Shown here: in pieces, positions 2,760-55,236 of the stretch
How the letters are laid out: each line of letters opens with the position of its first letter
Numbering within the stretch: position 1 is the stretch's first letter
Translations under genes and position numbers: made by a program
The notes under the pieces: model-generated
Seen by the model: only the letters and a program-made list of their open reading frames with translations
Database searches by the model: none
What the model was told of the DNA's origin: nothing
Assembly (NCBI GenBank): GCA_048213135.1
Contig: PS015355.1
Span: 1 to 56,674, forward strand
From: Reclinomonas americana ATCC 50394
Taxonomy: Eukaryota
Direction: 5' to 3'
Length of the DNA stretch: 56,674 nucleotides

Positions 2760-3906
2760 GAGTNNNNNNNNNNNNNNNNNNNNNNNNNNNNNNNNNNNNN
2801 NNNNNNNNNNNNNNNNNNNNNNNNNNNNNNNNNNNNNNNNNNNNNNNNNNNNNNNNNNNNNNNNNNNNNNNNNNNNNNNNNNNNNNNNNNNNNNNNNNNN
2901 NNNNNNNNNNNNNNNNNNNNNNNNNNNNNNNNNNNNNNNNNNNNNNNNNNNNNNNNNNNNNNNNNNNNNNNNNNNNNNNNNNNNNNNNNNNNNNNNNNNN
3001 NNNNNNNNNNNNNNNNNNNNNNNNNNNNNNNNNNNNNNNNNNNNNNNNNNNNNNNNNNNNNNNNNNNNNNNNNNNNNNNNNNNNNNNNNNNNNNNNNNNN
3101 NNNNNNNNNNNNNNNNNNNNNNNNNNNNNNNNNNNNNNNNNNNNNNNNNNNNNNNNNNNNNNNNNNNNNNNNNNNNNNNNNNNNNNNNNNNNNNNNNNNN
3201 NNNNNNNNNNNNNNNNNNNNNNNNNNNNNNNNNNNNNNNNNNNNNNNNNNNNNNNNNNNNNNNNNNNNNNNNNNNNNNNNNNNNNNNNNNNNNNNNNNNN
3301 NNNNNNNNNNNNNNNNNNNNNNNNNNNNNNNNNNNNNNNNNNNNNNNNNNNNNNNNNNNNNNNNNNNNNNNNNNNNNNNNNNNNNNNNNNNNNNNNNNNN
3401 NNNNNNNNNNNNNNNNNNNNNNNNNNNNNNNNNNNNNNNNNNNNNNNNNNNNNNNNNNNNNNNNNNNNNNNNNNNNNGGGAGAGAGAGAGAGAGTGGGAG
3501 AGAAGAAGGGATGAGTGAGTGAGTGAGTGAGTAAGTGTGTGCGTGAGTGTGTGTGAGAGAGAGGGAGAGTGAGTGAGTGTGAGAGTGAGTAAGTGAGTGT
3601 GAGAGTGAGTGAGTGAGGGAGAGAGTGCAGAATGAGTGAGTGAGTGAGTGAGTGTGTGCTAGTGAGTGTGAGCGAGCGAGAGAGAGAGAGTGAGAGTCTT
3701 CTCTTTCCCTTTGCCTGTTGTCTCTCACACTCACACGCTCTCTCTCTCTCTCTCTCTCTCCCTCCTCTCTCTCTCTCCCCCTCTTTTCCCTCTCTCCTCT
3801 GTCTCTCTCATTCTCTCTCTCCCGCTCTGTGGACGCAACAAGTGCTACAGTCTGAGACGCATTCACCGCCGCACAGCGCCGACTCGTAGTCGCCATATTG
3901 CGCCAT
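482..3906 (-). CDS. PLAC8/cornifelin-family Cys-rich protein (spliced)
   Basis: Exons ~3906-3840 (MAQYGDYESALCGGECVSDCST), 2637-2474 (FWYGGCCCPCL...RQQLRSKYG), 1111-~710 (CADCLAVCLCPCCAACQDYREIK) and a probable last exon ~608-482. CCPC, RxxxRxxYG and CxCCAxCQxxRE are PLAC8 motifs. The 3' end could alternatively stop at 641. Confidence 0.85.
2688..2760. repeat. (GACA)n microsatellite next to an assembly gap
   Basis: Perfect GACA array in the first PLAC8 intron. Confidence 0.95.
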
Positions 3907-4646
3907 CGCAACAACAACGCATGNNNNNNNNNNNNNNNNNNNNCGACAATCAACCACCGTGTCCTGCCCGTCGCTCATGCACAACAAGGCGGCCATGTTG
4001 TGTATCGTATCAGTTTCGTGTTGCTCTGGTGTGTGCGTGGTGACGGGAGCAGCTGCGGTGAAGAAAACGAGCTGACGTCGCAGTAGATATCGCGACGTCG
4101 CGCACAAATAAACAACAGCGGGCTTGATGACCAAGTCCAACCATATGCAGAACATCAACATACGTACCAGTCTTGAGAGCAGCAGTAGCTTTTCTTGCAT
4201 TGTGTTCGCTCACGAAGTTTGAACAATTCGACGTCGACGTCGAGAATTGCGATCTGCGTCGCCAACGACAACTACATGGTCTATCCAACCCGCAGCACAT
4301 GTTCAGCTGCATGATGGCCACCATCTTGAGCGATCGCCAGAAACAGAGATGGAAACAAGACAAGCAAGTACTGTAATGCGGACACAATTGCAAATCCCTT
4401 GCCGACAATGACCAAGGCACAAGCTACCATAAACTTCTCCAAACAGTCATCATCCCTTTCAGGAGGCAAAGCCAAGCAATCGCGTGCTGGCTTGTTTGGT
4501 CAGAGGATAAGCGAACGTCGCGATCGCAAATGCTAGCGCTGGCGATTCTGCGAGTCACGTCTCCACCTGCTGCGTACAAGGACAGCAAACCAGTGCTTGA
4601 GTCTTTATACACTCCCACGGTGCTTCAGAACCACGTCCTTTCATGC

Positions 4647-4974
4647 ATGTCCTCCGATCATTTCGATATCCGTCACGCAGCGATGAAGAAGAGGAAGCTG
4701 GTGGTCCGTACACACCCTCTCCCACTCCCTCTCCCTCTCTCCCTCTGACATCTTCTCCTCCACACACACAGAGTGGCACCGCAGTGGTCACCTCTGTTGC
4801 TCCGGAACGAGCGCAGGCCGAGGACGGCGAGAGCACAAAGAAGAAGAACAAGGCGAAAAAGTTGGCGGTGACACCGTCCAAGGGCGACACGTCAATGACG
4901 AGCGATGGTGGTGGCTCGGCCGACAAGAGGAGGCAGCGGAAGAAGAAGGGCGCGAAACGTTGCGTGTGAGGCGC

Positions 4975-5016
<42 letters not shown>

Positions 5017-5928: not shown

Positions 5929-5960
<32 letters not shown>

Positions 5961-10352: not shown

Positions 10353-13162
10353 ATGAGTGCAAGTAGTGTGGTGTTTGCGGCTGCGTGTGCACTGCGTGAG
10401 TATGAGTTGCGTGATTGTGTGTGTGAGAGAGAGAGAGAAGAGTGTGTGCGTGCAAGTGTGTGCAAGTGTGTGCAGTGTGTGTGTGTGTGTGTGTTTAAGG
10501 TTTGTGACTGTTGTTGTTGTTGTTGTGTGTGTGTGTTGTTGTGCAGTGCTTCTGCTGCTGGGCAGCGCGACTTGACTCCGGGAAACTGGTATCGCGTGAC
10601 GCAGATTGTGAGAACACTCTCTCGCCTCTCTCTCTCACACACACACACGCATTCATGTCATACTCCTTCGCTGTCTTGCCCTCGTGACAGTGCATTCTTC
10701 CGTCGACCTCATCTCTCTCCTCAGATGTATTCAAGTCGTTCTTGCTTGCTTTCTCTCCGTACTTCCTGCCTCTCTTCCGCGAACTTGTATGATCGTTAAA
10801 GAGCGATCTGCTGTCGCTCTCGCATCCCACTCTCTCTCCCTTCTCTCTCACTCCGCCGACCTTGCATCCCACCCTCTCTCCTTCTCCTTTACCCTCCCTC
10901 TCCCTTACCCTCCCTCTCCCTTACCCTCCCTTTCCCTTTACCCCCTTCCCCTTTGCAAGGTCGACGACTCATGGGTCAAAGTCCGCGCCTTTGGCATGTG
11001 CGCCGTGGAGGGCCTAGTTCCCCGCGACTGCGTCAAGCTGGTCGGCGATGACGGCGAGGACCTGCGTGGCACCGACTCGGTGCAGGCACTGTCGGGCACT
11101 GTGCCACTGGCCTTTGTTTCGCACTGATCTCTGTGAACAATATCGTGATTATTTTTTGTGTATCTCACGGCGAGTGGCGCAGGCGTACTTGTACAACAAG
11201 CGATTGGCGGCCGACATGCTCAAGTCGACGTTCCGATCGGCAGCCGACGCCGGTCTCTTGCGCCACTTGCAGTACCTCGATATCAGCAGCTGCGTGCCTG
11301 TCTGCGCGTGTTCTCTCATGTAGTTGAAGGCTGACTGTGTGCATGAGTAGACAACAAGGTTCGGCTGGTGGGCGCGGTGGCCATTGCGGAGCACGCCCCA
11401 CAGCTGCTCGGTCTGGAGGCCAAGCGTTGCGTTTTTGCAAGTGGCCGCGTTCACCTGTGTGTGCCAGGTGATTGCTCACTTGTCGCGCGTGCAGGTTGCG
11501 AGCTGGATGCCGAGGCCCTGGAAGCTCTGTCGACGTTGCCGCTGGAGCAACTCATTGTCAGCTGTTGCGTGCAAAGACCCGCGCGTGCGCACGAGTGTCA
11601 CTCTCCTTCTCATACACATGTGCAGCGAATCCTCTTGGTCTTGATGGAGCGCGTGTGATTGCGCAGCGCATGCCCCGGCTCCGTCGCTTGCATATCTACC
11701 GTTTCGTTGCTTCCATTCATGTTGTGCCTCTTTCTCAACTCTCCTCTGACTCATTCACTCGCAGGCTGTCAGGTGGAGGCCGCTGGTCTGGAACAGCTCG
11801 CAGTCGCCTTTGCTGACCAGTTGGAGGACGCCGATTTTGGTGCCAACAGCACCTCAGCCGACTGCATTCAGGCCATTGCGCGCATGAGTCGTCTCAAGCG
11901 ACTGTGCCTGCAAGGTGCGCCTCGGGGAGACGATGTGCTCTTGATTCCCTCTTGCTCTTGCGGCTTTTCTCTCTCTTCCTTCTCTTTCCCCTGTGTTCTC
12001 TCACTCTCTGTCATCACTCTTCAGTCTGTTTCTTTCCCTCTCACCTCTCCTTTTTATCCTCTTGCTCTTATCTCTGTCTTTCCTGCTCAATCCCTCCCTG
12101 TCCATGCCTACACTTCTTGCTTCCTCTCCTTTCCTCCTCCCCTTCCTCTCAACTTCTCCGTTTCCCTCTTGCTCCCGTCTTTCCCTCTCAACTCCTCCCT
12201 TTCTCTGTATTCACTTCTCCATCTCCTTCTCCTCTCTTCTCTCGCAACTTCTCCCTCTCCCTGCCTTCACTCCTCCGTCTCCTTTTCTTCTTGCTTCCTC
12301 TCCTTCCCCCTCAACTTCGCCCTCTCCCTGCCTTCACTCCTCCGTCTCCTTCTCCTCTTGCTTCCTCTCCTTCCCCCTCAACCCCTCCCTTTCCCTGCAT
12401 TCCCTTTTGCTCCCTCATTCTCCCTCTCGCACAGAGAGCGCCATCACTGCGGAGCTGGCTGAAGTTCTCGCTCGTGGACTGCCGACACTGGAACGCTTCC
12501 TGCTCACCAGTGCGTCGTCGTCCTACGCTAGCCGAGCGTGAGACAGCAGCGGGTTACTCACACAATTGTGTGGCGACAGGCAACAATCTGGGTCCACAGG
12601 GCATCGCTGTCATCGTCAAGCACATGTGCCATCTTCGCGAGCTCAATGTGCACGGTATGCAACCTTTGTGCGTCTCTTTGTTGTGCAAGTCCTCGGCATT
12701 TGACATTCCCCTCAAAAAAACAGGATGTGAGATCGGCGCCGAGGGCGCACTGCATGTGGTGGAGGGTCTGCCCGACATTCGCGAGTTGTACATTGACGGT
12801 GTGATGGTCGTTGCTCCTGTTGTTGTTGTCACCTTGTGACGCGACTGACGTTTTTTTGCGCTTGCACAGAGAATAACATTGGCAGCGAGGCGGCGCTGGC
12901 GGTGGCCGAGGGTCTTCCTCGTCTGCGTCGTCTTGGCATTCGTGAGTGTGTGCATCCGTGGAGTATCACTCCCGTGTTTTTGTTGACTCTCTCGTGCGCA
13001 ACAGACGGCAACGGTTTCGAGGACTATGCTGTTGCCTGCGGACTGCCGCCCTCACTGCATGGCCGGTCACAAATGGAGGTTCACAGCGCGGTTCAGGAGC
13101 GCCTCTCAGAGGACAGGAAGCTTTACTGGCAAGACAGACAGCGTGCTTATCGAGATGAGTGA
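10353..13162 (+). CDS. SH3 domain + leucine-rich repeat (RNI-like) protein, ~12 exons
   Basis: Spliced ACALREYDASAAGQRDLTPGNWYRVTQIVDDSWVKV...EGLVPRDCVKL fits SH3. It is followed by ~29-aa LxxLxLxxNxL repeats (LQYLDISNNKV, LERFLLTSNNLGPQG, IRELYIDENNIGSEAA) with one phase-1 intron per repeat. Confidence 0.85.
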
Positions 13163-13170
13163 ATTTGATT

Positions 13171-16100
13171 TTACAGCATGCTGTCAGCCACACTCGCCAG
13201 TCTCAGGTCAGATCGTTCGCCCTCCGGGGCCGCATGCGGGCGGTGTGTACGGAGCCAATAGTTTCTGTGTGTTACGTTGCTCTGCAATCAGCCACGCACC
13301 CCGACACAACATGAACACGACATGACGACGCAACTGGTACACCACGCGGTAGAAGTTGGTCGATCGGACGTACTCTTCACTTTTTTCGGTGGTGGGGCGG
13401 TAGTGGTTGCTGACCGCTCCCGAGGCGCGCACACTTTCAGAGGCCGCCACACCGCCCAGCACCACATCCAGTGTCGGGTCCACAGGATACACGACCTTCA
13501 AGCTCGCGCTCAACCCCTCATGCCTCATGAGCTCACGCTCAAATTCCGCACGGTACTCGGCTGGCGTCGTGCGACCGCCAGTCAGCACGACGTGGTTCAC
13601 AGAGGGTGGAGCGGAGGCAAGCATGCGAGCAGTTGCCTGCGCCATCTCCTCCGCAGACGCATACTCAGCCTCGCGCACCACTGTCGCAACGGGCTTCTCG
13701 GTCAGAACGCCATCGACGACACACGCAACGGTCGCCATGTGATGCCCGACGGAGCACACCACAGCGTCCGTGAGACCCATGTGGATTGCTGACAAGACCG
13801 GGGCAGGGACGAGAACCACGGCGCGGTTGGCGATGGTGCGAATGTTCGATGCCAAGGTCAACTGGTAGCGTGCCGACCAGCCGGTAGCAGGCACAGCAAA
13901 GAGAAGCGGTTGCTTCAGCGAGCGCTGGTCACGAGGGTTTTCGACCAGTGCGGCAAAGAGGAAGCGTGCAAGCAGCTCCGGCAACAGGGTCATGTTGATT
14001 TGGGCTGCGTCGAATGATGAGCAATTGCAATCGCTGCGGCTACGTGATCGACGGAAGAATACGCACCAAACGTCGACACTGGTGTCGCGTACGCGCTGTG
14101 GTTCTCAAGAGCAGCGTTGCCAACCAGCGTGCGGTCGAACGGTCCGCGCCGCATGTGCAGATCGAACATGTATGGTACCTGCGATGCACGCTGAGGTCGC
14201 AATCGGGAGCTTCATGGAAGAGATCACGACACGAGTGTACCTGTGCCACCACGGAGCGGATTTTTTGCGTGCGCACTGTCTTCTTGTTGACAAAGATGGT
14301 CGCGCCCTTGGTCGTGTAACCTCCAATGTCAATCACCATGTACGGCAAACGACCTTCGCCCACAATGTACTGCGTTGGCAAACACAATCCCGCATGAGAA
14401 CACACACGTGTGGCGGCTGCCTCGCGTTACGTGTTTACCTGATTGCGATAGAGACCAAACCAGTCCACGATCGACGGATGGCACTGCATTCAACGACGCG
14501 CGCGACGGTCAACAGCTGTCGGTGCGCGCGGTGCGGCCGCAAAGCACTGACCTTGTGAAGCAACGTCTCGGCAGCGTACAGCAACGGCCACTCGCGACGA
14601 CATCGGCTCTGCGCAATGTTCAGTCGTTTGCCAGCATGCGCGAGGAAGCAGGCAACCTCCATCACTCACCATCCACACACGGCCGTCGTATACCATTTCG
14701 TACCACGCCTAAAAGCAATGAAACATGCGTGAGCTCGCAGGCGATGGTAACGCCTTTTACATACCCCGCACATACCCGGCTCACGGTGAGCGTGCGCATC
14801 ACTTCCGGGGGACTGAGGAACTCGAGCACCGTCCCAAAGACGTCTGGAGGCAGCGGAAGATGTCCACGCTCCACCGGTGGCGGTATGGAGCGTTGCGCGT
14901 CTCGCTGCATGGCAATCGCCTGCAGATACGTGTCAACAAAGCCGGCTGCATCGCCCTCCTCCTCCAGTTGATGCGCTCGTTGATACAGCGTTAGCAGTTG
15001 GAGGTACTGTGCGAAATCAAGCATGAGGTGGTGGTGGTGGTGAACCAGGAGCGCTGTCGGTCAAGGACCAACCTTGGGATCTGACAAGAACGCATCGGGG
15101 TCCGGCTGCGCGGGAGTGTCCACTCGCTGGAACATGATCTCTGTGCGCATAATGTACTGTTGCCACACCGCGTGAGAGCCGAATCGAGGACTTCGTTGAA
15201 GAAGATCTCCACATACAGACCTTGACACCATGTTCCACCTTGTCCCCGGCGTGCATCACGTCGTGATTGAACACCAGAGCGGTACCGGTGCGCGGCCGCA
15301 CAGAGCAGGCAGTATTGGCGGCGTCCACTGCCGGCTGCTCCAGGTCGAGGCGGCCAGAGAACGGATACGACTCCTTCATAAAGTGCGTTTGCCCGCCTGC
15401 ATTCGAGATGTCAGTCAGCGCCGACACGAGAACACACATGCAGTGGCGCACAAGACTCACACACCATCAAAGTTGTCGTTGAGGTACACAATTACAGTGT
15501 AGACCGACGATTCGTCGTACCGCGGCACCCACGGCCCGTCAATGTGCGGCGCAAAGTGACCGCCGCTGGCATATCGATTGACCTTGAAGCACTCGTTGAG
15601 ACGCGTTGGCCGCCACACACCGCGGTTGCCGAAATCCATTGGCCGCACACGAAGCACATCCTGCGGCACCAGGTGAGGCGCAACGCGGTGCCCTGTGTTT
15701 TTTCGCGAGTGAACAACAGGCTATCGTCTGGCCCCACGAGGGACAACAACGCAACACAAGGAAGTGGCCATCTCGTCCGACACGAAGAGAACGCGATCAT
15801 TGCAGCGGTACTCCACCGGGAACGTGGACGCCAGATCAATAAAGCCAGTGTCCGAGGCCTGCGCGATCAGATACGCGCACTCCTGCTGAGAGAGCACGTT
15901 GTGCAAGAGAAAGCATCGTGCTCCCGGCACATCCAGCTCCTCGCGCACAACCCTCCTCGCGACCTTATCCTGCGACACGCCGGCCGACAAACTGTCGCAC
16001 AGCGTCAAGTCGCGCAGGTTCTTCTTGGCCGTCACCAGCATCGGTCGCTGCAGCAACACCGGGCGCTGGCGACGCGCAGCGGATGATTGCATCGACTTGC

Positions 16101-19800: not shown

Positions 19801-22800
19801 TCGGATCGCAGAAGATGCAGCAGTTGGGGCCGTAGTACTCGGCATTGCACACGCACTGGCCGTTGCTGTTGCATCCTCCTTGTCCGCTGCACGTGATGGC
19901 CGGGTCGCAGAAGATGTCACAATTCGGGCCGTAGAAGTTGGTGGGGCAGCCTTGTGGGGTCGGCGGAATGCAGCAATTGGGTCCCGACCAGCCGCCCGTG
20001 CACACACAAGTGCCGTTGGTGGAGCAGGTGCCGTGGCCCATGCAGGTGACCAGTGGGTCACAGAACACAGCGCAGTTGGCGCCATAGTAGTTGGTGTTGC
20101 ACACGCACTGGCCGTTGCTGTTGCACAGACCGTGGCCACTGCACGTTACTGATGGGTCGCAGAAAATGTCGCAGTTCGGACCGTAGAAGTTCGTCGGGCA
20201 GCCCTGGTTGGTGGGCGGCACGTTGCAGTTGGTGCCCGTCCAGCCGCCAGTGCACACACAAGCGCCGCTGGCCGAGCAGGTGCCGTGGCCGGTGCAGGTC
20301 AGGTTCGGGTCGCAGAACACGCTGCAATTGGTACCGTAGTACTCCGAATTGCAGATGCACTGCCCGTTGCTGTCGCACACGCCGTGGCCACTGCAAGTGG
20401 TGGCCGGATCGCAGAAGATGTCGCAGTTGAGGCCGTAGAAGTTGGTCGGGCAGCCTTGCGGCACCGGAGGAGTGCAGCAGTTGGGGCCTGACCAGCCGCC
20501 AGTGCAGATGCAAGTGCCATTGGTCGAGCAGAATCCGTGGCCCATGCAGGTCTGGTTCGGGTCGCAGAACACACTGCAGTTGGTGCCAAAGTAGTTCGAG
20601 TAGCACACACAGAGGCCATTGGTGTTGCAGAAGCCGTGACCACTGCAGGTGGTGGCCGGGTTGCAGAAAATGTCGCAATTGGGACCGTAGAAGTTGGTCG
20701 GGCAGCCCTGAGGCGTAGGCGGGATGTTGCAGTTGGCGCCAGTCCAGCCGCCGGTGCACACACACGTGCCGTTGACCGAGCACGTGCCATGACCGGTGCA
20801 GGTCGTCAGCGCGTTGCAGAAAATGGTGCAATTGGGACCATAATAGTTGGTGTTGCAGATGCACTGGCCATTATTGTTGCACACACCGTGGCCGCTGCAC
20901 GTGGTCGCCGGCTAATGTGCACATTACACAGGTAAGCAACAACAGAGACATGCTACGCACAAACACATACAGCTAATTGGGCGCAAGTGCACACGCAACA
21001 TCGCAGATGGGAGCCAGCTGCGTGATCTGGAAGGCCTTCGTGAACGACAGCCCCGTCGAATCGGTGACGGTGATGACAACTGTCAGATTGCCGGTCTGGC
21101 CAGCGTTGGTGATGCGCAGCGTCGGGGTGTTGGACGAGCCCACAATGTTGAACAGACTGTTGTTCGCGACACCAGACGGAAGGGAGAACACAAAGTGATC
21201 GCCGCAGTTGGCATCTTGCGCCTGCGTGCACACAGTGGTGAGTGCAAAAAAATCAAGGGGAGAGGAATTGCAGCAAGTCGCCGCACACCACCGACGCAAC
21301 AGACAGTCCACCAACGATGGTGTTTGCCACACTTGTCGGTCCGACGTATGTTGTCGACGAGAGGGAAATGTTCGTGGGTGCCACTGGCAGCTCCGACAGC
21401 GTGAACTGGGCGTCGACAAACAGATTGCTGTTGAGAGTGTCGACAGCACGCAGGCACACGGTCACGTTGCAGCGCGGTGGCATCGAGCCGAACACCAGCG
21501 TCGTGCCCACAACGGCAAACGCGTTTGGCTCGCTCTCTCCATTAATCAGAACGATATTCTGGTTGTACGGTGGAATGTCGGGGTCTGTTGAGGGCGCAGT
21601 CAGCACCACATAGTCAAAAAGGTGGCGCGAGCACCAGCTGTCGACAACTGACCGACGACGATGATTGAGGCCACAGTGCCGCCAGGAGAACCCGTGATGT
21701 TGTAGTACAACGTCGACAGTCCGATGCTCTCGGGAGCGTTGTCCACATCGAATGTGAATACGGCGTCGGCGAACATCGGCGGATTACCACCATCGGTCGC
21801 CTGTGCACACCTCGTGAGTATGCACGCGCACTCTTTTCGTCGTCCTGCTGCACACTACAGACACTCACCCTCACTCGCACAGAGACGGGGCCAGCCAGCG
21901 GATAGGCAATGCCACCAATGGCCGGCAACAGCTGGTTGCCAACAATGCGGAACAGCGAACTGCAGTTGGAGGAAGCCAGATGGTAAGCACGACAGACGCA
22001 CGCGGCACAGTGGACGTGAGGCTCACGCAACTTGTTGGTGGATCCAGTGCCCGCAACAAGACTGAAAGTAATCTGCTGATTGTTCGAATCCGTTGAGGAC
22101 AACACCGTGATGACAGTGTTGTCGGTGACACCGCCATGCGGCACGAAGATGACGTTGTTGGACGACTGCGGCGTCGTCGGTGGTGTGTTGACTGCAAGCA
22201 AGCGAAATGGAATTGAGCAGGCGGTGGAGTCAAGCAGGCACAGGTCTGCACTCAACTCTCTTGCAGCGTGAACACCTTGTCAAAGACCAGCGAGGGGCTC
22301 GTTGCATCCTGTGACAGTCGAGCCGTCAGAAGAAGAATACACCATGCATGAAAAGGAAAGAGTAGAGCGACTGCTCACCGTGGCGCGGATGGTAATCACT
22401 TGAGGCCCGTGAGGAGCGCCGGAGCCGAGGACCAAGGAGTTACCGGACGCGCCAGAGAGCGCAAAGGCACCGGTATTGTTGAGAATGGACAGCGTGTCGA
22501 TGTTGAGCGGCGGCGGGTCATTATCTGCAAAGAGAGATCAGGGAAGCAGAGACAAAAAGTGACACGCGGAAACAGCACTCACCAGTGTAGGAGACCTGAG
22601 CGACAAACGAACCAGGAGCGGCATTCGGATCGTAGGCTGTGGACATGCGATGATGAGTGGCAGACGCACAGTGCGAGGGGGACATTATGAGTGCATACGC
22701 AACTCAGCGACGACAGCGTGATGTTGGTGGCGGCGGTGTTGACCAGAATTGTCACCACACTGTCGGAACTCAGCGGCGGACTGCCATTGTCGGTGGCACG

Positions 22801-25800: not shown

Positions 25801-26124
25801 GCGGATCGATGGAGACAGCTGCCGGCGGCGACTGCGTGGCAATGGTGAACGTGAACGTGCTACTCGGCGACGCAGGGTCCACGGCGCTGAGGATGCACAG
25901 CGGCGTCCCATTGGGGGCGCCTGGGAGTCACGCGTACGTGTGAGTGTGACTGTCATGCCAGCAAATATAGGAGGGCACGTGAACCAACCAAGATTGTGTG
26001 TCGCCGACACCGGGGTGCATGTGATGTTGACGGCGGCCGAGGCGGCAGTCACCACACATGCGAGGCTGATGATCGCCACAAGAAGTGGCGAGAGGGACGA
26101 CGTGCCGCGACACGACATCCTCAT
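16830..26124 (-). CDS. Large secreted protein: signal peptide, tandem cadherin-like repeats, long EGF-like repeat array (gapped)
   Basis: Hydrophobic leader LLVAIISLACVVTAASA. Repeats carry PTDIxL, TDPD, FSLVAGTGSTNNxLFxI, RVTDSGxPxL and FxKxFTL motifs (~25650-21000). The intron-free CxxNFYGPNCxxFCDPxxTCxGHGxC array (20910-16830) ends CNIPM*; no TM segment seen. Confidence 0.85.
18034..18851 (+). other. EGF-repeat contig in opposite orientation to its host gene
   Basis: Same repeat protein read on the + strand, bounded by N gaps on both sides; near-identical to the reverse complement of 17080-17310. Confidence 0.85.
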
Positions 26125-37915: not shown

Positions 37916-39466
37916 TTACGTCCGCTTAATCTCCGACAGGAGAGACGGCACGCTGGCGTTCCACGGCTCGGCCGACTCGTGCATGCGTTTTTGTAGCCGC
38001 TCAAGCTGCACGCGAGCGGCGGCCAACGACGTCGAGTAGCCATTGGCGCACGAATCGGGGTGTGAGAAGTGCAAGTATCGCATCACCGGCAACACATTCT
38101 CCTCCTGTCGCCACACGTCGGGTGAGTCGTCGACAATCACAGTGCGACGGGGATCTGCGAAGCAGCACAGGATTCAGTAAAGTGGCAAAAAGAAAAAAGC
38201 ACGAGGCAAACATCACTCACCAGCATCCAGGCCGAGACGGCACAGCTTGTGCAAGTCCTTGACAAACATGCCGTACATCGATGGGTGCGGGTCGAGGTCC
38301 TCACGGGCCACAATGCGCGAGAAGAGACGGCCGTCGGGGTCCAGGGCGGCGCGCACCACCGCCTCGGCGTACGAGCGCATGCCCATGGTGCAGATAATCA
38401 TCTCGTACTTGCGGCTCAGTGTTTGCAGTGCGTCAATGGCGCCGGGGCGGATCTTGCACAGCACCGAGTAGGCGTAGTGGCCGAGCTCGTCGCGCACTTG
38501 AATGGTCATAATGTCGGCGCCCTTGGATTTGGACGTCTTCATCAGTGCACTGAGCGTGGATGGCTGCACAAGGAGAAGGTCAGCACACACACACACACTA
38601 CTGGATGTGCATATCGCAAACACACAAACGCAACTCGGCAATCGGGAGCCTCCAGGCAGTCGACCAGGGTGTTGTCCAGGTCCCACACCAACAGCAGCGG
38701 CACGCGCACCAGTGCGCCCAAGAAGCACTTGGAGGCATCGGGAGCATCGGCCGGGTAGTTCTCGTGCGGCAAAATGTAGAGAGCGTAGCCCTCGCGCAGG
38801 TGCAAGCACAGCGTCTGCTCACAAGTAACGATGAGTATCGTGATGAGACGAAGAAGAAGAAGAAAAGGAGGAGGAGAGAAACGAAACTTTTTGCAGCGAT
38901 CCCGAGCGGTTGAGGTTCTCAAACATGGTCAGCAGCACGTTCTCGCTGTAATTGTGCTTCAGCACAAAGTAGGCCTCGACCTCGCGCTGCGTCGTCTTCT
39001 CCTCCACCGTCACCACCAGCTTGTCGGGGCACACGTGCATCCTGTTAATAACAAAAAGGGTGAGTAAAAACGTGCGAGTCTGTGAGAGCAATGGTTGTCA
39101 AACGCAACAGTGTTCCCCACTGGTCCTCGCCTCGGTCGCCCGCCGGCGAGATTGTCAGCGTGCCGCGCGGCAACGCATTCGGTCGGAAGCAAATGTGTCG
39201 CTCCATCGACAGCGCACCGCTGCCGCTGCCACTCGGTGTCGACTTTTGCGACGAGTCCGAAATGCCACTGTCGGTGTGGTGGTGCGTCGGTGTGGTGGTG
39301 TTGGTGCGCGGAGACGGCGCACTCATGCCACGGTAGTTGCCCGTGACCTTCATGTTGCGCGTCGTGTTGACCAGCTCTTGCAGACCGCGAGCATACGGTC
39401 GCTGTGCAGCCGCCGCCGCCGCCGCATCTTGCATTTGCTGCTGCTGCTGCTGCTGTTGCTGCTGCT
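37916..39466 (-). CDS. FCP1/CPL-like RNA polymerase II CTD phosphatase (HAD family), partial, both ends in gaps
   Basis: LVWDLDNTLV (DxDxT), KIRPG...L...YEMIICTMGMRSYA...LDPDGRLF.RIVARE, KDL and IVDDSPDVW motifs. Confidence 0.85.
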
Positions 39467-44087: not shown

Positions 44088-45895
44088 ATGCGACGTGTCT
44101 TCAGTGTGCGTCGCGTGGCATGGCTCTTTGCAGCGGCCTTGCTCCTCCTTGTCCTCCTGCGATGGTCATCCGTGGATCGCGCCACTCCACAAGCAGTGGT
44201 CTCCTCCTCACTGCATCACCATCACCACCACCATCACCAGCCTCCTCCTCCTCCTGCTGCTCCCCTTCCTCCAGCGCCACCAAGTCGACCTGTGACAGAG
44301 GACGACATGGATGCAGTGGAAGACGACGACACGGTGGAGCCAGCAGGCAGCGGTCGACCACAGCGACGGAAACGAATCACCATATCACCCAAGCCTCCTC
44401 CTCCTCCACCTCCTCCTCCTCCTCCACCACCACCACCACCACCACCACCAGAGGAGGAGAAGAGTGAAGCAGAGGACAAGCTGCGAGGCGAGACTCGGCC
44501 TGAGGAAACACCACCGCCACCACCGCCACCGCCGGCCAGCAGAACCGAGGCTGAGCTGGAGGCCGAGGCCACGGCATCTGCTGCATCAGTGGACTCTGCG
44601 ATCCACGACGATGTGGACGAGACTGGTGATGTGTGGCAGCCGCCTCCGTGCGAGCCCATGTCGTGGAACGGTGAGACAAGAGTGGCGTGTGTTTGCCGCA
44701 GCTGCTGCTGCTTCACGATTGTCATCGATTCTTCTGTGCAGAGTTCCGTGACACGTACAAGCCCGACTTTTTCAACGCATCGCCGCAGCAGCGACTGACA
44801 CCGGCACGATACTATGACGGATTCATCATGGGCGATGAGTTGGACCTGCTCGACATTCGTCTGCATGAGCTCGACGCGGTGGTCGATTACTTTATCCTCG
44901 TTGCGTGTTGTTGCTCGTTCTCTGTTTCTCCTCCCCCGCTCACCATCAGCGCAGGTCGAGTCACCGTGGACTCTGCGCGACAAGCCGAAGCCGCTGTACT
45001 TTTTGGAGAACCGACAGCGCTTCACGCGCTTCCTCAACAAGATCATTCACGTGATTATCGACGACAGTGAGCGGCCGCAAAAGTTCACGTACTGGGAGCA
45101 CGAGACGCTGCAGCGCAACGCCATTGGCAAGCGTGGTCTCGGCATGATTCCCGACGTGGAAGACGAGGACTTGGTCGGCGTGTCGGACATTGACGAGATC
45201 CCTGATCCACGCCTCATTTGCTTTGTGAAGCATCATTCGGGCCTGCCACCGGTGCATTTCGCTTGTTCCTCACTCTGCGTGCTGTGTGCACGTGATGGTC
45301 GTCGCTGATCGGCGTTTGTGCACAGATGCTTCGGTTGCGTGCCAAGTGGAACTTTGCCAGCTTTGCGTGGGTGCATGCACGCACCTCCGATGCTGCCGCC
45401 ATTATCCGCGTCAAGGACCTCAACGACCACGAGGGGCGCACCAACGAGGTTCGCCGTGTTGGTCTTCACCTGCCGGAGGGTCGGCTCGGTAGTTTCGTCC
45501 CCGCACAACACTGTCTGCGAGATTCTGCGCTCATCTCACCATGAACAGCCAAGGGCCACGAGGCGGCGTGGCACTGTTCGTGGTGCACGCCGCTGGCCGG
45601 CTGGAGCGTCAAGCTGTCGTCGTTTGCACACAAGGAGCTCAACACGCCGGAAAACAACAACCCCACGCGCTTCGCCGAGATGCGTCGCAAGGGCCACTGG
45701 TTCACCAATGAGTCGCACGGACGCCGCGCGCAACCCAACGAACGCCTGTTTGCGCCGAAATATGTGCTGGATCATCCGCAGCGGTTCGGCTACCTGATCG
45801 ACCCTGACTCGTCGGCAGGTGATGACCAGCCGCTGCCCACGGGACCACCTCCACTGGAGCACGACGATCCGGCACCGGATAACCACGGCAGATGA
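44088..45895 (+). CDS. Glycosyltransferase family 17 (MGAT3-like beta-1,4-GlcNAc transferase), type II membrane protein
   Basis: N-terminal TM anchor and Pro-rich stem; ELDLLDIRLHELDAVVDYFILVES, KPKPLYF, E..QRNAI, SDIDEIP and WHCSWC motifs. Confidence 0.9.
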
Positions 45896-46063: not shown

Positions 46064-48521
46064 CTAGCTACGACGCCGCCGCTCAGAAGATTTCGCAGTG
46101 GAGACCCGACGAATTCGGCTGGCACATGCAGGCACCGGTGGCCAGATCGCACGTGCCGTGGCCGTTGCATGTCTCCACCGGGCGGCACTCGCAGTTCTTG
46201 CCGCCGATGCCGGGCAGGCACTGGCACTGGCCGTTGACACAGCCGCTGGAGTTGTTCTGGCCGTTGCAGTCTGTGGGGAGATCAAATTAGTCGGCCGACA
46301 AGGAGAGTGTGTGATGCGCAGCGGCAACGAACCGGTGATGGAGGAGCACACCGGCGGCAGCACCGGCACCTCGGGCACGCACACCTTGATCTCCAGCTCA
46401 AAGTAGTCCACCGCAGAGTCGTCTGCGGTGTCGCCACGTAATGAGTTGGTTGACACTGAAGGACAACTGAACGCAAGGAGCATACTTCACCTTGCACGAC
46501 AATGTCGAGGCGGCGAGTGGCCTTGACAAAATCGAGGACGGTGGCGTACGGGTTGTTGACCGCCGGGAAGGTGGCGGCAACGGTGCTCAGATCCAAGTCG
46601 AATGTGTAGCCACTGGGGTAGTTGCCGGACGTCCACGAGTTAGGGCGCAAGCACGCAGCACTCTGTGTATTCACACGGCGTGTGTCAGCAATTGCAAGCA
46701 GAGACGAATGGGGGGTGGACAGCAGCACAACGCAAGTACGAACTCCACCCAGGCAGACTCCGCCCGAAGCGACACGGGTGTTGTTGCTGTCGAAAGTGTA
46801 GAACCCAATGGTGTCGTTATCCGGAATGCTGCTGCCCACTGAGGATGATGATGGGCGTCAGCATCCAGTCGGAACACGTGAACAGCAGGCATCGTGCACG
46901 CAACGAGGCTTGGCCTTGAAGTGCAGAATTGCCGACACAATGTTGGTCGGCAGGTTGAGGAAGGAGTCACCCAGGAAGGCATCGGTGATCGCAGCGTCGA
47001 ACTGCTTGGCCGGGGCCGCGGAGGCTCCAGCGATGAGAATGGACAGAGCGGCGCTCGGAGACGCGTTCTCGACCGGCGAGGCAAAGTTGTCCTTTGTGCC
47101 GTGCAGCGTCGTCGTCGTCTGGCACTGGGCGCACTGTGCAGACATATACAGGGAGAGTGTCACAATCACACAGTTCAACACGCACGCGTGCCGATCGCCA
47201 ACGCAACAATGGTGTACTTGAGCTCGGCAAAGTCGACAGCGGTATCGTCTTGCACGACCACCTGTGCCGGGAGTGAGTGAGTGATACAGCAGGGCAAGCA
47301 GAACCATTGAGAACAAACCGACAGGTTGCGGAAGGTGTTCATGGCGGCGAGGAGAGACATTGTCGACTGCGGTCCAGTCGGCAGCGCGTTGATGTCCAAC
47401 TGCAACAGCCAGCAGGCATTTTCATGTGAGACTGAGCGGGTGGCGAGACAAGTGTGGTGTGTGAGAGAGAGCACACGCACCGTGAAGAGCTGGCCGTTGG
47501 CCGGGATCTGGAAGCTCGACCACGTGCCAAACATGTCCAGCGAGAAGCCAAAGCCGGTGCCAAAGTGGGCGCCCCACGTGGCCACCAGCGTGTTGCCGTT
47601 GTACACACGCAGACCGATGGTGTCGTTGGTCGAGCTGTTCTGGTACGGCTTGGCGCGAATGTTGAGTGTGCCCGCAGTGAGGTTGCTGCCAGTGACATGC
47701 GACGGCAGGGTGAAAGTGGTGGTGAAGAAGACGTCAAGAGGCAGCGCCTGGTCGTAGGCACGGTTGTGCGGGAACGGGTTGACAGAGTTGATCAGAGCGG
47801 CCGACGGGCTGGTGGCACCGTCGAGAGGCAGCGCGAAAAAGTCCTTCTGGCCTTGCAGGATGGTCGCGTCGGAGCAGAACAGCGGCGCCGGGCACTGCGC
47901 GGGGCAATGACAGAGTCAGCGCGTACACACAAGGAAAGACCGAGAGGAAGCGTCGTCATTGTCGTCACCGTCTGGTCGCAGCGCGGTCCGCACTTGCCGT
48001 TCTGCACAGGAGTGTGAGACGCACAAAAGGCAGGAAGCAGAGGTACGAGGCAGCAATCCCTCTCACCGAGCACGTGTTGCAGTCGTTGCCAGTCCAGCCA
48101 GCAAAGCTAGAGCACAATAAAGGGAGAGAAAGCGTGAGGTGAAGTTCAGGAACTCAGAGCGAACATATGATCGATCACCATTGGCACAGGCCATTGGCGT
48201 TGCAGGTTCCGTGGCCACTGCAGGACTCCACAGGGCGGCACTGGCACTGAGGGCCTGCACAAAATGTGCGGTTAAGAAGAAAGACAACGGGCAGAAAAAA
48301 CCAAAGCTTGGCGCCAAAACAGCAAAAACAAAAAAGACAACCCACCGCACATTCCCACATGCACACTCTCGCACACGCACACATAGATTCGCACAGAGGG
48401 GGGGAGAGAGACACGCGCACACATGCTCAGGGGCATCGTGTGTGCCACATCACCACATGCGCTGTATGTCGCCACAGAAACAGCAAACTCGGCGGACTTC
48501 TCGTGACATGATTGCATCTCG

Positions 48522-49992: not shown

Positions 49993-52657
49993 ATGAGCGG
50001 CCGCCACGGCTCTGCCCCGCGCATACCCACCTCCTCCGCCTCCGGAGGCCCGGGCTCCCGGCGAGGCGCCGACGGCGACTCGGATCGCTTTGGCCGCAGT
50101 GAGCACTCTGCTCGCTTCGCCGACGACGACGACGACGGCGATGATGGCGCACTGGTGGATGACGTGGCAAGACGAGGCGGAGGCGGAGGCGTCCCTGCGG
50201 AGGACGATGATGACTCAGACGATGCAAACACTGCAAACATCATTGATGGCGATGCAGATAAGGATGATCGCGCGCTCTTCAGGCACGTATGAGACACTCA
50301 CGCACACACACGCACACACACGCACATACACACAGCAAAGGAGTGCGCATGTGACAGTGCGAGAAATTCATCTTGTGCGCATGTCTCTTTCTCTGTCTTT
50401 TCGCGCACGAGTGTGTGACTCTGTGTGTGTGCCTGTGTGCGTGCGCGTGGCTTGTGTGTGCGTGCATGTTGCTGATAATTTCTCCGTCATTTCATTAGTC
50501 GCAACACGTTCACCATGCGCGCTGAAAAGTTGCGATGGCGTTCCATTCGGCTCATGTATTTGACCACGTTCCTCTCGTCTACAGGTGAGTTCGTCTCTTA
50601 TGTACACGCACGCACATGCTTTCTCTGTCTCTCACATTCGCGGACTCGCATTCAGGCTTTTCGGTGGTGCTTCCGACGCTGTGGCCTTTTCTCGACAAGG
50701 AGGGCGGCACCAAGGCCTTCCTTGGCTACGTGGTGGCCAGCTACAGCCTCGGGCAGCTCATTGGCAGTCTCATTTTCGGCTACTGGTCCAACCACTCGCG
50801 GCGTGTGATTCCGCTGGCCGTGGCCACCGCCATTACGGCCGTCGGCAACTTCCTCTACTGCTTCACTGTGGCGATGCCGTACTCGCATGCGTGGAACTTG
50901 TTCATCTCGCGTCTCATTGTGGGCATTGGTGCCGGCAATGTGGCTCCGGCACGCTCGTATGTGTCGCAGGCCACCACGTTGAAGGAGCGAACAGGCGCCA
51001 TGGCGTACATGAGTGCTGCGCAGGGTCTCGGCTTCATCTTTGGCCCAGGTGAGTTGAAAGGGCACATGAGCGTTCATGCACGTACAAGCACAGGGGCACT
51101 CTTCTCACTCAGTTGGTCTTTGCACTCAATCGTTTTGTCTCTTACGCACTCATTACCTTCCTCCTTCCTTCGTTCTCTCCTTCCTCCTCCACGCACTTAC
51201 TATACCAGCCCCTTCTCATCTCCACGCTCGTTCTCTCCTCCCTCTTCCTCTCTCTTTCTTGCTCACTTGCCCTTCCTCCCTCCCCTTCCCCTCGCCCTTC
51301 CTCCCTCCTCCCTCCCTCTCTACACCCCTCCCTCCCCTCCCCCTTCCCCCTTCCCTCCTTCACTCTCTCCTCACCCTTGTTGCACCGCAGCCATTGGCGC
51401 GGCCTTCTCATCCATGAACCCGGGTTGGCACTGGAGCATTTTCGAGTTTGACTTCCTCACCGGACCTGGCTACCTGTCGGCGGTGTGCGAGACCGTCAAT
51501 TTCGTGCTGGTCGTCCTCTTCTTCACCGAGCACACCGTGGGCGACGCCGATGATGCCAGCGAGGCGGCGCCGCTGATCACGCCCGTGTCGCAGTCGAGTT
51601 GCGTTCCTCTTATTTCTCCTCCCCCTCTCCCTCCTCTGTTACTCACCCTCCCATCACAGGCCGCGGCAAGACCATCAACACTGTGGACGGCGGCGACTAC
51701 CAGAACAACTCGGACGACGAGCGCTCGGAAGCCGTCAGCCTGATGCTCGGTCACTCCAGCCTCCACCGCTCCGTGTCGAGCAGCGTGCGTGACCTCAAGC
51801 GCGACATGAAGGACCCGACGCAGTATTCGAGGCCCGACATTCTCGGCGTCATCATGGGCACCATCATCTTCTTTGCCGTCATTTTTGTGTTTGCCATTTT
51901 TGAGACGTTTCGTGCATGCCTCCTCTCCCTCTCTCTTTTTGTCGCCGCCAGCACTCACTCACTCTCCACGTGCAGCATTCTTACACCATTCACCATGGAC
52001 GAGTACAGCTGGTCGCGCCAGCAGGCCGATTTGTATGGCGGCATCATCCTCGGCTCCGTGGGTCTCATCGCCGTGTTTGTGTTCATCTCGGTCAAACTCC
52101 TGGTCAAGTGGGTCGGTGAGCGACAACTGATGCTCGCCGGCTACGTGGTGATGACGGTGGCCTTTGTGTTGATGGTGCCATTCGCCGGCATCCCCACACC
52201 GTGCACCGACAATCCGTGGTGCGCCGACATTCCGCAACTCAATCTCGGTCAATTCCTCGGCGCCTGCTTCCTCATCGCCCTCGGCTACCCGGCCACCTCG
52301 GTCATGATCTACTCGCTGTACTCGAAGATGCTCGGCCCGTCACCGCAAGGCACATGGATGGGCATCCTGAACGCCGTCGGTGCCGGCGCGCGCATGATTG
52401 GCCCCATCTATGTCACCAATGTGTACGACAAGTGGGGCCCGCGGTGGGCCTTTGGCGGTGTCGCCGGTCAGATGGCCGTGTCGGTACTCATCTGCATCAT
52501 CTTCTGGCGCCGCTTTGTCGATCATCCAGACTCGGTGCGCAAGAGTGGCGCCGACGCGGTGGCGCCCTCCACCAACAGCGGACCTGGCAGCTTCCGGCGG
52601 CCGCTGCCCGGCAGCCGTCGCGGGCCAACCTCCGTACAACACCACATGGATCTATAG
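49993..52657 (+). CDS. MFSD8: MFS transporter, MFSD8/CLN7-like
   Basis: [42 protein letters not shown]...RSY....T..ERTGAM...QGLGFIFGP, FETILTPFTMD.Y.W and YSLYSKMLGP.PQG..MG...G...RMIGP match MFSD8 as I recall it. Confidence 0.88.
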
Positions 52658-52824
52658 TGTCTGCAGGACTGACTGCTCGCGGAACTGGCATTTCGCTCTC
52701 TTTTTATCATGCCCACAGTTCTCGCTTGTCGACGCCCTCGACGTTGCTCCTTTTTTGTTTGGTGGAATCCGCATTACAATCTTTTTGTTTCCATAGAGAA
52801 GAAAAAACATGATTATGTTGTTTT

Positions 52825-55236
52825 TTACAGTGGCTCGTGGGCAAGGAAGCGGCGCACCATTTCAAAGGCGCGCTCCGGCTGCACAGTATTGCGTACAGTG
52901 AGTAATCGGGAGAGCGTGGGCGATCGATACGAGGGAGTGTAACTTGGGAGCTCGGCACCATGTGGCCTGCGAATCGAATGCTCGTGTACGTCATCTTGTC
53001 GTAGTCAATCGTACGACTGTGACGGGGAGGTGAGTGAGATGGATGGATGGTGCGCCGTTTCATCATGGTCAGCGTGAATGAACTAACCCGGCCACTTGCT
53101 TATTGACTGTCCACACCCGATAGGGCGAGATGGCTCTCATGCCCAGCATGTCCATCCACAGTCGCGTGCCGGGGAACGCAACAACACTGCGTCGATGGTG
53201 AAGACGTTAGTGTGCAAGCTCAGCAAGGGAAGTATCCACCACACGTACCTGTCGACATCACCCGAGTAGATGAGAATGCGCAGATTGTGCGGCAGCAGCT
53301 GCTCGTACACCGGCAGCAGTGATCGCAGCATGTCGCTGTCGTTCCAAATCATTTCGTCGCCGGTACAGCTCGTCCACTTGAAGGTGTTGGGCAGCGGCCG
53401 CCGTGTTGCGTGAATGGCGTTCTGTGGCAAGTCATGGGCGCGAGAGTCTGTAACGAGCAGCAACAATACACGACATTATCGAATGCACGCAACCCACACA
53501 TCCGATCGACTCAGATACGTCTGCGTGTACTGATCGACGCACACGTCGATGGGCACGTCGGAGAGACGATGTCTCGCCCGTTGCTGCCAGGCGCGGTGCA
53601 GGACAGTGTATGCCGAGTGGCAGTTGGAGGCGGAGGCGAACTTGGCCAGGCGCGTGGCTCGGTTCTGCGTACCAAATCAGGTGCTTGCGCGCAAAGGTAA
53701 AACAATATGCACACACACACTCACCGTGGAGGAGCTGAGGCACACATCGTTGAACAGGTCGAACTGGTCAATGTTGCTGCGGCGCAGAAGAAAGGGCAGC
53801 GGTAAGCGGGCTGCAGATGGAGCAAGCGAGAGGGGGGCGGTGCACGGCAGTAAGTAACCCCATGTCTTTCAGCGCCTGCTCCAGGAACGGCTGGCACTGA
53901 TTGTCGGGTGTCGGCTGGTGCGGCGGCGGACCGGTACAGTGCTGCACCAGGCCCTGGTACCTGTTGAACGAAGAAGCGCGTCAGTGCAATGCACCCCCGG
54001 GCAAGAGAGAGGTGAGGATGAGGAAGGACGAAACGTCGTGTTGGAGATCACGTTGAACTGGCGCCACATGGCAAACTGCGACCAGTCGTCCACTCCGGAC
54101 CACGTGTACGCGTTGCCGACCATCATGCCCTTCAAGTTGATGTGCAACTGTGGAGGGGCACAGAGGAGATTAGCAGGAGTGAGAGTGATAGAGAGAGAGA
54201 AGGAGAGTTCCACGCACGTTTGACGAGTTGCGGTTTCCATTGACAATCGCCAGTGCCAAGTCGGGCGCATAGTGACCCGTGTACGACTCGCCCGAGATCC
54301 AAAACTCGCGCTCTCGCAGCTTCGGATACTGCGAAGCCTGTAGTGAGCACTTTTGTCCAGGCACTGCGTGGTCCTCTTCGTCACAGACCTTGGCAAAGAA
54401 CCGCTGCAGGAACGCATACGTGTCGGCAATGGTCGCAAAGTCGCCCGTGATGTAGTCACTCGGGTCGTCCGAGTACGAGAAGCCGACCGGCGCCGGCATC
54501 TGCACACGCGCAGTTGCTGTTGAGCAACACGAAAAGCATGATACACACTCAAAAGATGACTGGCGACACCTCCAAGAACAGCATACTGGCCACGCGATTC
54601 CACGACCACGGATTGAGCTGCAACGAGCCTCCATCCGAGGCCGGAATGAACGGACCCAACTCCTGCGCACGTGAGCGTTGAGCACACGTACGTGTGGGGC
54701 ACACAGTGCCTGCTGTTATACCTCAAACAGTCCCTCCAGTGAGGAACAACCCGGTCCTCCATTCAACCACAACACCTGTGCCTTATGTGTGGGACAAGAC
54801 AAGCAAACACAGTCAGTGGAGGAAGCGTAACCAGTGGATCCCTCGCAGGGTCTCTTTGTGACTCTGTCAGCCAGTAGAACAGGTTGCTGTGTCGTCAATG
54901 AGCGTCAGTGATGACTGGAACACACGCACACACACATACTCTCTCTCACACACACACTTCTCTCTCTTTTCTCTCTTCGCTCTCTCTCTCTCACCGATTA
55001 TGCGCAGCATCGACTTGCACATATCCCGCGTACTGCTTAAAGGCAACACCCGCTGGTTGGCCCGGTAACCTCTCAATCACATCGCTCTCTGCACAAAAGT
55101 TGTCTCAGTGACCACAGCGCGCGTGAATGAAGAAGCCAGCAAGAAGACGCAGACCATCGTGCTCTTGTTGTTGTTGTGCAGCACAGTAGCACACAAGTGC
55201 GACCAGACAGCACAGCGCGACAACCAGCGCGCGCAT
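52825..55236 (-). CDS. Serine carboxypeptidase (S10 family), secreted
   Basis: Signal peptide; LPGQP...[23 protein letters not shown] (catalytic Ser), [16 protein letters not shown] (Asp) and AGHMVP..QP (His) motifs. Confidence 0.95.

Follow-up and report, generated by a model that had tools for sequence, protein, structure and literature searches.

Some few hundred donor sites read in a shifted or bulged register have been described in humans, established minigene by minigene. In the 56,674 bases of contig PS015355.1 (assembly GCA_048213135.1) of Reclinomonas americana ATCC 50394, the whole of which is referred to here as the window, a donor class of the form GTT[G/T]CGT, that is GTTGCGT or GTTTCGT, begins about a third of the short introns. 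It stands beside ordinary donors of the form GTNNGT, and relative to the cut its G-U lies one base deeper. The window is eukaryotic nuclear DNA, interrupted by 11 N runs that sum to 4,368 bases, most of them with microsatellites on their flanks.

Human shifted-register donors, which Roca and Krainer are said to have described in 2009, are reportedly rare, are of the GUUAAGU type and pair well with U1 once shifted. The class in the window resembles them in that the intron begins with GU, the consensus lies one base deeper, the first intron G substitutes for the exon-end G, and the cut site would be fixed at a later step and not by U1. Whereas the human sites are rare and have A at +5, the class here accounts for roughly one in three introns of the window and has C at +5; and while the human sites pair well with U1, the class is predicted to pair very weakly with a canonical U1 in any register.

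In bulged-register sites (Roca et al. 2012; Tan et al. 2016, PMC4856993), an extra nucleotide likewise stands between the GU and the G-U, and such sites coexist with canonical ones within one gene. A table in PMC4856993 lists 68 predicted human sites with a bulge at +2 or +3; these are a tiny minority, and the exon-end G, which a bulge preserves, is missing from the class here. Two major donor classes, exon-side AG//GU and intron-side //GURAG, are set out in the accessible parts of PMC9803359, PMC11732430 and PMC11842720. As in the window, two separable classes are found per genome, one depending on the exon-end G, the other on bases inside the intron. Those classes, as described there, keep the intronic bases at +3 to +6, whereas here they are displaced by one and seven positions are fixed.

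U12-type introns have a 5' splice-site and a branch-site consensus of their own. Like the class in the window, they combine a rigid, extended donor consensus with the presence of a degenerate major class, but the consensus is a different one, and the introns here have an ordinary branch site and 3' end. A literature search, with supplements outside its scope, found no report of an abundant GUUGCGU donor class; for GTTGCGT or GUUGCGU it returned only primers, aptamers and the like. On bulged and shifted registers it returned human, drug and tunicate work, and the tunicate paper raises a shifted register merely as a possibility.

A discrete class of donors

Gene structures were predicted with a Viterbi gene finder that uses codon log-odds learnt from the window. 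In the donor-blind run any GT or GC donor had equal weight, and the acceptor and branch model was learnt from the finder's own short introns. This run predicted 73 introns, 52 of them 40-140 nucleotides (nt) long, among which GTTGCGT occurs nine times and GTTTCGT three times, while every other heptamer occurs at most twice. The donor-aware run predicted 97 introns; its matrix for ordinary (class-1) donors covers positions -2 and -1. During curation the introns at 11253, 11564 (wrong acceptor), 13334, 23724, 53182 and 55956 were removed, the last two being doubtful; introns 11564-11625, 11701-11764, a possible GC intron at 11289 and 23751-23678 were added by hand, and 21886 was corrected by hand. 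The curated set contains 95 introns, of which 80 are no longer than 200 nt: 35 with GTNNGT donors, 28 with GTT[G/T]CGT and 17 others. Donor 28790, found later by reading frames, stands outside these counts.

An earlier note on this DNA, made from its letters, had listed 23 GTTGCGT and 4 GTTTCGT donors and suggested that GTTGCGT may be the commonest single donor heptamer. All 27 coordinates match exactly on their strands, and within the window GTTGCGT is indeed the commonest, with 22 of the 80 short curated introns (next is GTGAGTG with 6) and 9 of the 52 donor-blind ones. The coexistence with G/GTGCGT and G/GTGAGT donors in the same genes (the slash marks the cut) is also borne out. A comparison that the note had proposed, against a single position-independent donor matrix, was run within the window: a matrix built from the 80 donors predicts 1.09 GTTGCGT where 22 are observed (p about 1e-22), and for the 35 donors also chosen blind the corresponding figures are 0.81 and 10. 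Open-frame tests alone are uninformative, because GC-rich DNA passes too many combinations.

The abundance of the heptamers points in the same direction for GTTGCGT, of which the window has 41 sites against 11.72 +/- 3.28 expected, a number reached by none of 100 shuffles. GTTTCGT is not enriched in count (9 sites, 6.39 expected; 18 of 100 shuffles reach 9). A strong 3' module, defined as a branch site with CAG in the top 3% of 6,642 AG sites and 45-110 nt downstream, follows 13.3% of all 6,904 GT sites in the window, but 17 of 40 GTTGCGT sites (p = 5.4e-6) and 6 of 9 GTTTCGT sites (p = 3.3e-4). The sole heptamer that ranks above them by this measure, GTCTGTC, sits in tetranucleotide repeats. 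The two class heptamers together occur 50 times in about 52.3 kb of the window and at 0.165 per kb in 80 metagenome kinesin loci from unrelated eukaryotes (290 kb). By these counts the GTT[G/T]CGT donors are a discrete class, not the tail of one matrix, and roughly one in three short introns of the window begins with them.

Position of the cut

To locate the cut, all GT/GC-AG combinations that lie no more than 45 nt from a junction, keep the frame and are free of stops were scored against protein profiles. A GTT[G/T]CGT donor scores highest at 11 junctions (32640, 54034, 53493, 25104, 24231, 23279, 22031, 21300, 39108, 38887 and 38634), which, together with the continuity of the profiles across the junctions, argues for GT-AG introns cut directly before the heptamer, as the earlier note had proposed. 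It had named cuts at the GC three nucleotides downstream or at the second GT as what would speak against this. In the ten scans that allow the comparison, GT(+1) is ahead of GC(+4) by 3.8-9.3 bits in eight, and the two tie at 32328 and 22703; the second GT scores below the first wherever it is a candidate (32640, 23279 and 38634). Membership among GC-AG introns was rejected on the same ten comparisons.

Misplaced boundaries, with the true donor at GC(+4) or the second GT, or a class that is the chance tail of one matrix, are therefore hardly credible: GC(+4) does keep the frame, it ties at two junctions and the gene models are home-made, but at 32640 it is absent from the stop-free list and, by reading, gives a TAG stop codon. 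A cut downstream of the GTT would also require a conserved exonic GTT in three codon phases without a coding rationale, and the excess over the position-independent matrix speaks against a chance tail. On the comparisons made here, this explanation appears largely refuted. All three codon phases are found among the class introns (11, 10 and 6). As judged from these junctions, they are genuine spliceosomal GT-AG introns of 55-96 nt with a CTCAC, CTCAT or CTGAC branch site and a CAG acceptor.

Differences from ordinary donors

The two classes differ at the 5' end only. The branch pentamers CTCAC, CTCAT and CTGAC are found 11, 6 and 4 times in the class and 11, 6 and 6 times in ordinary introns; with the same three pentamers on both sides, membership in the U12 type was rejected. 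The CAG acceptor, length (median 67 vs 68 nt), GC content and pyrimidine content are also alike, and the distance of the branch site is the sole nominal difference (p = 0.03).

In the class, C at +5, G at +6 and T at +7 are each found in 28 of 28 donors, so that the displacement of the G-U to +6/+7 and the C at +5, both claimed in the earlier note, stand. At the equivalent ordinary position C is found in 13 of 35. Position +4 of the class (G 22, T 6) mirrors ordinary +3 (G 20, T 9, C 3, A 3; n = 35). Only 1 of 28 class donors carries the exon-end G, against 30 of 35 ordinary ones (p = 1.2e-11); among donors chosen blind the figures are 0 of 13 and 11 of 14 (p = 3.4e-5). The absent -1 G and the invariant +5 C are the features that constrain the mechanism; the earlier note had remarked on neither the missing -1 G nor the strictness of the C. 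Among similar heptamers, 22 of 41 GTTGCGT sites are used, but none of 3 GTTGAGT, 13 GTTGTGT or 5 GTTGGGT sites, while the ordinary donors used include GGTGAGT (7) and GGTGCGT (5), at about equal frequency, and GGTGTGT (3). The ordinary donors are themselves unusual in that A is rare at +3; their +4 position has C 13, T 10, A 9 and G 3.

The large repeat gene at 19478-26118 (-) shows how the classes are related by position. Its five repeats of about 215 residues are diverged, and their intron positions are partly common and partly lost. In the five-unit alignment GTTGCGT at 25104, GTGAGTA at 23930 and GTGCGTT at 22900 lie at an identical column and phase; GTTTCGT at 25674, GTATGCA at 24409 and GTTGCGT at 23279 share another column and phase, where units 4 and 5 are intron-less and gapless. 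Since both donor classes are found at the same paralogous column and phase, they are interchangeable at one intron position.

It is very improbable that the class owes its common 5' end to descent from an introner-like, intron-generating mobile element and not to a demand of the spliceosome. One dominant heptamer and many introns of similar length (median 67 nt) would fit such an origin, but the lengths are distributed as in ordinary introns, either class may occupy the same paralogous position, and a target-site duplication is not evident on reading the junctions. Interior 8-mers are common to 29 of 378 class pairs, which is no higher than between classes (59 of 980) or among ordinary introns (25 of 595), and membership among introners was rejected for want of excess similarity.

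The earlier note had left a shifted and a bulged register side by side, and here the two part. With canonical U1 and U6 and one U (+2 or +3) bulged, GCGU would pair as in GUGCGU. GUUGCGU is formally GUGCGU plus one U, a single-base intronic insertion would be the simplest conversion between classes at paralogous positions, and one-base bulges at +2/+3 have been demonstrated in human sites according to the accessible part of PMC4856993. A bulged U would, however, keep the exon-end G paired with C9 of U1, and this G is not kept, which favours the shift over the bulge, as does the way in which +4 copies ordinary +3. Moreover, predicted duplexes put the +1 G on C8 in only 2 of 28 sites, and a generic tolerance of a bulge would yield GUUGAGU and GUUGUGU donors, which are the unused heptamers mentioned above. 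The bulged register is consequently quite improbable.

Recognition of the class

The favoured reading, to which a probability of roughly 0.55 may be given, is that both classes present one seven-base signal to the same major spliceosome and that the new class is cut one base away from the ordinary position. The common signal would be G-N-U-K-N-G-U. In the ordinary class its second base is G, so that the intron would begin at bases 2-3 and the first G would be the last base of the exon. In the new class, H/GUU[G/U]CGU, the second base is U, the only GU is at bases 1-2, and the cut would fall one base upstream. Relative to the cut, the recognised K, G and U would thus be displaced by one, and the first G would replace the exon-end G. 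For catalysis, U6 would have to tolerate one additional base between the GU and its paired G-U. The invariant C at +5 might mean that the remaining site has to pair as fully as it can with its reader. That both classes use one spliceosome is supported by their matching branch sites, acceptors, lengths and base composition and by the mixture of donors at equivalent positions of the paralogous repeats. The features expected of a shifted register are found in the cut at GU, the G-U at +6/+7, the +3 preference that reappears at +4, and the lack of a -1 G preference.

Several points weigh against this reading. The canonical 5' end of U1 is AUACUUACCUG and the canonical U6 box is ACAGAGA; pairing was predicted with ViennaRNA duplexes against the canonical 11-base U1 end. 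The stable pairing expected of a shifted register is missing from these predictions, which assume a canonical U1: the median is -1.2 kcal/mol for the class, no stronger than for random sequence, against -6.4 kcal/mol for ordinary donors. While the +1 G of ordinary donors is always predicted on C8, the class duplexes have no consistent register, and none of the dominant solutions puts the +1 G on C9. A canonical U1 would be expected to favour A at +5 (GUUGAGU or GUUAAGU), yet no GTTGAGT site is used, and canonical snRNA (small nuclear RNA) pairing, as modelled, leaves the C at +5 unexplained. The count of 30 of 35 ordinary donors with a -1 G is inflated by the donor-aware matrix, which covers -2 and -1, and since G precedes any GTT in just 14.6% of cases in the window, the missing -1 G means that G is not enriched there, which falls short of a proven depletion. 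The cut sites are placed by homology, paralogy and one relative's protein; the spliced origin of that protein is suggested solely by the size of its contigs. Finally, all data come from about 52 kb of sequence in one window, and genome-wide abundance is an extrapolation.

Many of the same observations would be accommodated by a non-canonical U1, the sole U1 or a second paralogue, whose position 5 would be G in place of pseudouridine (and position 6 possibly C), or whose 5' end would be fully complementary to GUUGCGU. The rigid seven-base consensus would then reflect near-perfect pairing, as in U12-type introns. Seven essentially fixed positions and the contrast at +5 are in line with this, as are the weak pairing of the class to canonical U1 and a frequency of GTGCGT among ordinary donors about equal to that of GTGAGT. 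In a thought experiment, G at position 5 of U1 brings the predicted pairing to -4.2 kcal/mol, with the +1 G on C9 in 15 of 28 sites; adding C at 6 brings it to -6.2 kcal/mol, with the +1 G on C9 in 14 of 28. On the other side, the 5' end of U1 is among the most conserved RNA sequences known. The 3' halves of the class introns are indistinguishable from those of ordinary introns, paralogous intron positions switch class, and Rfam at gathering scores gave zero matches over the whole window, so that no snRNA gene was found in it. It is thus unlikely, though well worth weighing, that in this lineage roughly one intron in three would be read by a U1 whose 5' end pairs with C at the position where all known U1s carry pseudouridine.

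Individual introns and their genes

The genes, introns and listed donors are collected in Table 1; gene names come from Pfam scans of single exons. Support at the level of the junction means Pfam continuity, scoring of splice forms against homologues or paralogous repeats, the register of leucine-rich repeats (LRR), or the uninterrupted protein of a relative. Among the 27 donors of the earlier note, 14 have such support (32640, 44900, 54034, 53493, 24231, 23279, 22031, 21300, 39108, 38887, 38634, 11426, 11564 and 11701). Nine are supported more weakly: 32328, 22703 and 28790 are consistent with GT(+1) but do not separate it from GC(+4); 20999 and 51598 are found in the donor-blind model, and 15755, 31046, 31250 and 51907 only in the donor-aware one. 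Three are plausible only by eye, and 13334 did not hold up: for the GTTGCGT at 13328..13334 (-), the donor-aware model offers nothing better than a weak GAG acceptor, and the site was dropped in curation. The donor-blind and donor-aware models picked 9 and 22 of the 27, respectively. Six further class donors, 25104, 25674, 29131, 45492, 46904 and 47207, lie beyond that list.

Table 1. Genes, class introns and listed donors in the window. Bit scores compare the class donor with the alternative named or with the next-best form; HMM, hidden Markov model.
Feature	Position	Strand	Evidence or remark
Listed donor GTTGCGT	3833..3839	-	Plausible by eye; in no model; intron would cross N gap
Listed donor GTTGCGT	4959..4965	+	Plausible by eye; in no model; low-complexity surroundings
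Listed donor GTTGCGT	10406..10412	+	Plausible by eye; in no model; flanking exons without Pfam match, perhaps SH3-like by reading
GTTGCGT intron, LRR gene, phase 1	11426..11494	+	One of 2 among 32 combinations with LRR in register
GTTGCGT intron, LRR gene	11564..11625	+	LRR signature kept in 1 of 16 combinations
GTTTCGT intron, LRR gene	11701..11764	+	Two LRR signatures in 1 of 23 combinations
GTTGCGT intron, 2OG-Fe(II) oxygenase-like gene	15693..15755	-	Donor-aware model only
Large repeat gene: five ~215-residue repeats, then DSL/EGF array	19.5-26.1 kb	-	
GTTGCGT intron, TAG acceptor, before EGF/DSL array	20912..20999	-	Donor-blind model
GTTGCGT intron, repeat gene unit 5	21222..21300	-	Best of 12, 37.0 vs 32.9 bits; GC(+4) 32.1
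GTTGCGT intron, repeat gene unit 4	21960..22031	-	Best of 12, 64.1 vs 54.8 bits; restores TNNSLF like unit 1
GTTGCGT intron, repeat gene unit 3	22637..22703	-	Gapless against intron-less unit 4; donor-blind model; 4 candidates, 35.2 vs 35.4 bits for GC(+4)
GTTGCGT intron, repeat gene unit 3	23205..23279	-	Best of 28, 25.9 vs 22.1 bits
GTTGCGT intron, repeat gene unit 2	24136..24231	-	Best of 8, 34.4 vs 28.4 bits; column of GTTTGTC at 23097
GTTGCGT intron, repeat gene unit 1, additional donor	25025..25104	-	Best of 25, 67.9 vs 62.6 bits for GC(+4)
GTTTCGT intron, repeat gene unit 1, additional donor	25610..25674	-	Sole scan candidate
BRCT protein gene	28.6-29.7 kb	-	Pfam
GTTGCGT intron, BRCT gene	28722..28790	-	Last residue of exon is BRCT profile position 75 of 78
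GTTGCGT intron, BRCT gene, additional donor	29072..29131	-	Donor-aware model only
Kinesin gene	30.0-34.4 kb	-	Pfam
GTTGCGT intron, kinesin tail	30989..31046	-	Donor-aware model only
GTTGCGT intron, kinesin tail	31189..31250	-	Donor-aware model only
GTTGCGT intron, kinesin	32262..32328	-	Top of 6; ties with GC(+4), 171.9 vs 171.6 bits
GTTGCGT intron, kinesin motor domain, phase 1	32574..32640	-	PF00225 positions 193, split codon 194, 195; best of 17 against HMM of 80 homologues, 297.0 vs 289.4 bits
NIF/FCP1-like phosphatase gene	37.9-39.4 kb	-	Pfam
GTTGCGT intron, NIF	38564..38634	-	P0155 gapless; best of 32, 342.2 vs 336.6 bits for GC(+4); donor-blind model too
GTTTCGT intron, NIF	38815..38887	-	P0155 gapless; best of 3, same donor in all; donor-blind model too
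GTTGCGT intron, NIF	39042..39108	-	P0155 gapless; best of 15, 175.5 vs 171.1 bits for GC(+4)
Glycosyltransferase family 17 gene	44.6-45.9 kb	+	Pfam
GTTGCGT intron, glycosyltransferase family 17, phase 0	44900..44954	+	PF04724 position 104 (last residue of upstream exon) abuts 105 (first of next exon); donor-blind model too
GTTTCGT intron, glycosyltransferase family 17 gene, additional donor	45492..45548	+	Donor-aware model only
GTTGCGT intron, additional donor	46839..46904	-	Donor-blind model
GTTGCGT intron, additional donor	47134..47207	-	Donor-blind model
MFS transporter gene	50.6-52.7 kb	+	Pfam
GTTGCGT intron, MFS transporter	51598..51659	+	Donor-blind model
GTTTCGT intron, MFS transporter	51907..51975	+	Donor-aware model only
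Serine carboxypeptidase S10 gene	52.8-54.5 kb	-	Pfam
GTTGCGT intron, S10	53422..53493	-	Best of 10, 79.9 vs 74.3 bits for GC(+4)
GTTTCGT intron, S10	53961..54034	-	Best of 13, 29.0 vs 20.1 bits; donor-blind model too

The best matches of the kinesin exon are 41-51% identical, with oomycete proteins among them at 41-46%. Its relatives in the protein collection and in metagenome contigs reach at most 52% identity, and no orthologous introns are therefore comparable. A homologue search with the MFS exon found none. The S10 scans were made against an HMM of nine S10 homologues, and donor 53493 in this gene is the sole class member with a G at -1. A GTTGCGT at 53176-53182 (-) was chosen by both models and yet is probably no donor; a canonical G/GTACGT lies at 53248. 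Around these two sites the match of homologues to the exon ends near residue 60, and eight alternatives score 74.5-75.4 bits. At the right end, 55613-56604 holds a cluster of five more GTTGCGT copies on both strands, where the gene models are weak.

The NIF junctions are compared with P0155, a 757-residue protein of a relative that is 87% identical over the query NIF exon and 46-74% identical to the other aligned segments. Since the NIF gene here exceeds 4 kb and the contigs of P0155 are at most 3,093 nt long, P0155 would derive from spliced RNA or an intron-less copy. It maps in two orientations: residues 104-183 (35661-35909) and 245-306 (36756-36929), from its N-terminal part, match the plus strand, and residues 354-757 (39401-37919), its C-terminal part, match the minus strand, with N gaps between the parts. 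The 1.7-kb piece at 37799-39466, between gaps 37069-37798 and 39467-39874, was probably placed in the scaffold in the wrong orientation, so that NIF would be one gene split by a mis-oriented contig (37799-39466 against 34892-37067). This close relative is present in public assemblies and could give comparative and transcript evidence.

In the BRCT gene, the exon 28791-28919 (-) before donor 28790 was missed by the models and found through reading frames; the junction preceding it is seamless on PF12738, with positions 24 and 27 on its two sides. The units of the repeat gene were scanned against leave-one-out HMMs of the other units. Its 3' part is one exon of 478 residues with 11 DSL-like and 11-12 EGF-like stretches, and the gene meets N gaps at both ends and internally. 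Near 15755, the donor-blind model took GTTGTTG at 15750 with a different acceptor instead. Upstream of donor 3839, the 27-residue exon has no Pfam match, and the presumed next exon, 2474-2635, corresponds to PLAC8 positions 18-78.

In the LRR gene, the alternative at 11426 that keeps the LRR signature uses the second GT, which shortens the repeat. A possible GC-AG intron at 11289-11350 (+) begins with GCTGCGT, the frame of the class with C at the second base, and restores an LRR (LDIS/NNKV); an adjoining GC/GAG combination restores the signature as well. GCTGCGT was rejected as a regular GC-type variant, a strong acceptor following only 1 of 16 sites, inside another intron.

Implications

If the window is representative, one shifted form would be routine in this genome, with an invariant seven-base signal and without an exon-end G. 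The genome would then offer thousands of natural substrates for asking how the cut site is chosen if U1 binds out of register with cleavage, how the U6 ACAGAGA helix tolerates an extra base, and whether the 5' end of U1 has itself changed. Gene finders trained on a single donor matrix over six intronic bases would mis-call roughly one intron in three, as the difference between the donor-blind and donor-aware models illustrates (9 and 22 of 27). Were the class instead read by a non-canonical U1, GUUGCGU would be a strong site in the shifted register, not a weak one, and R. americana would be a natural example in which the 5' end of U1 has changed together with a donor class used across the genome.

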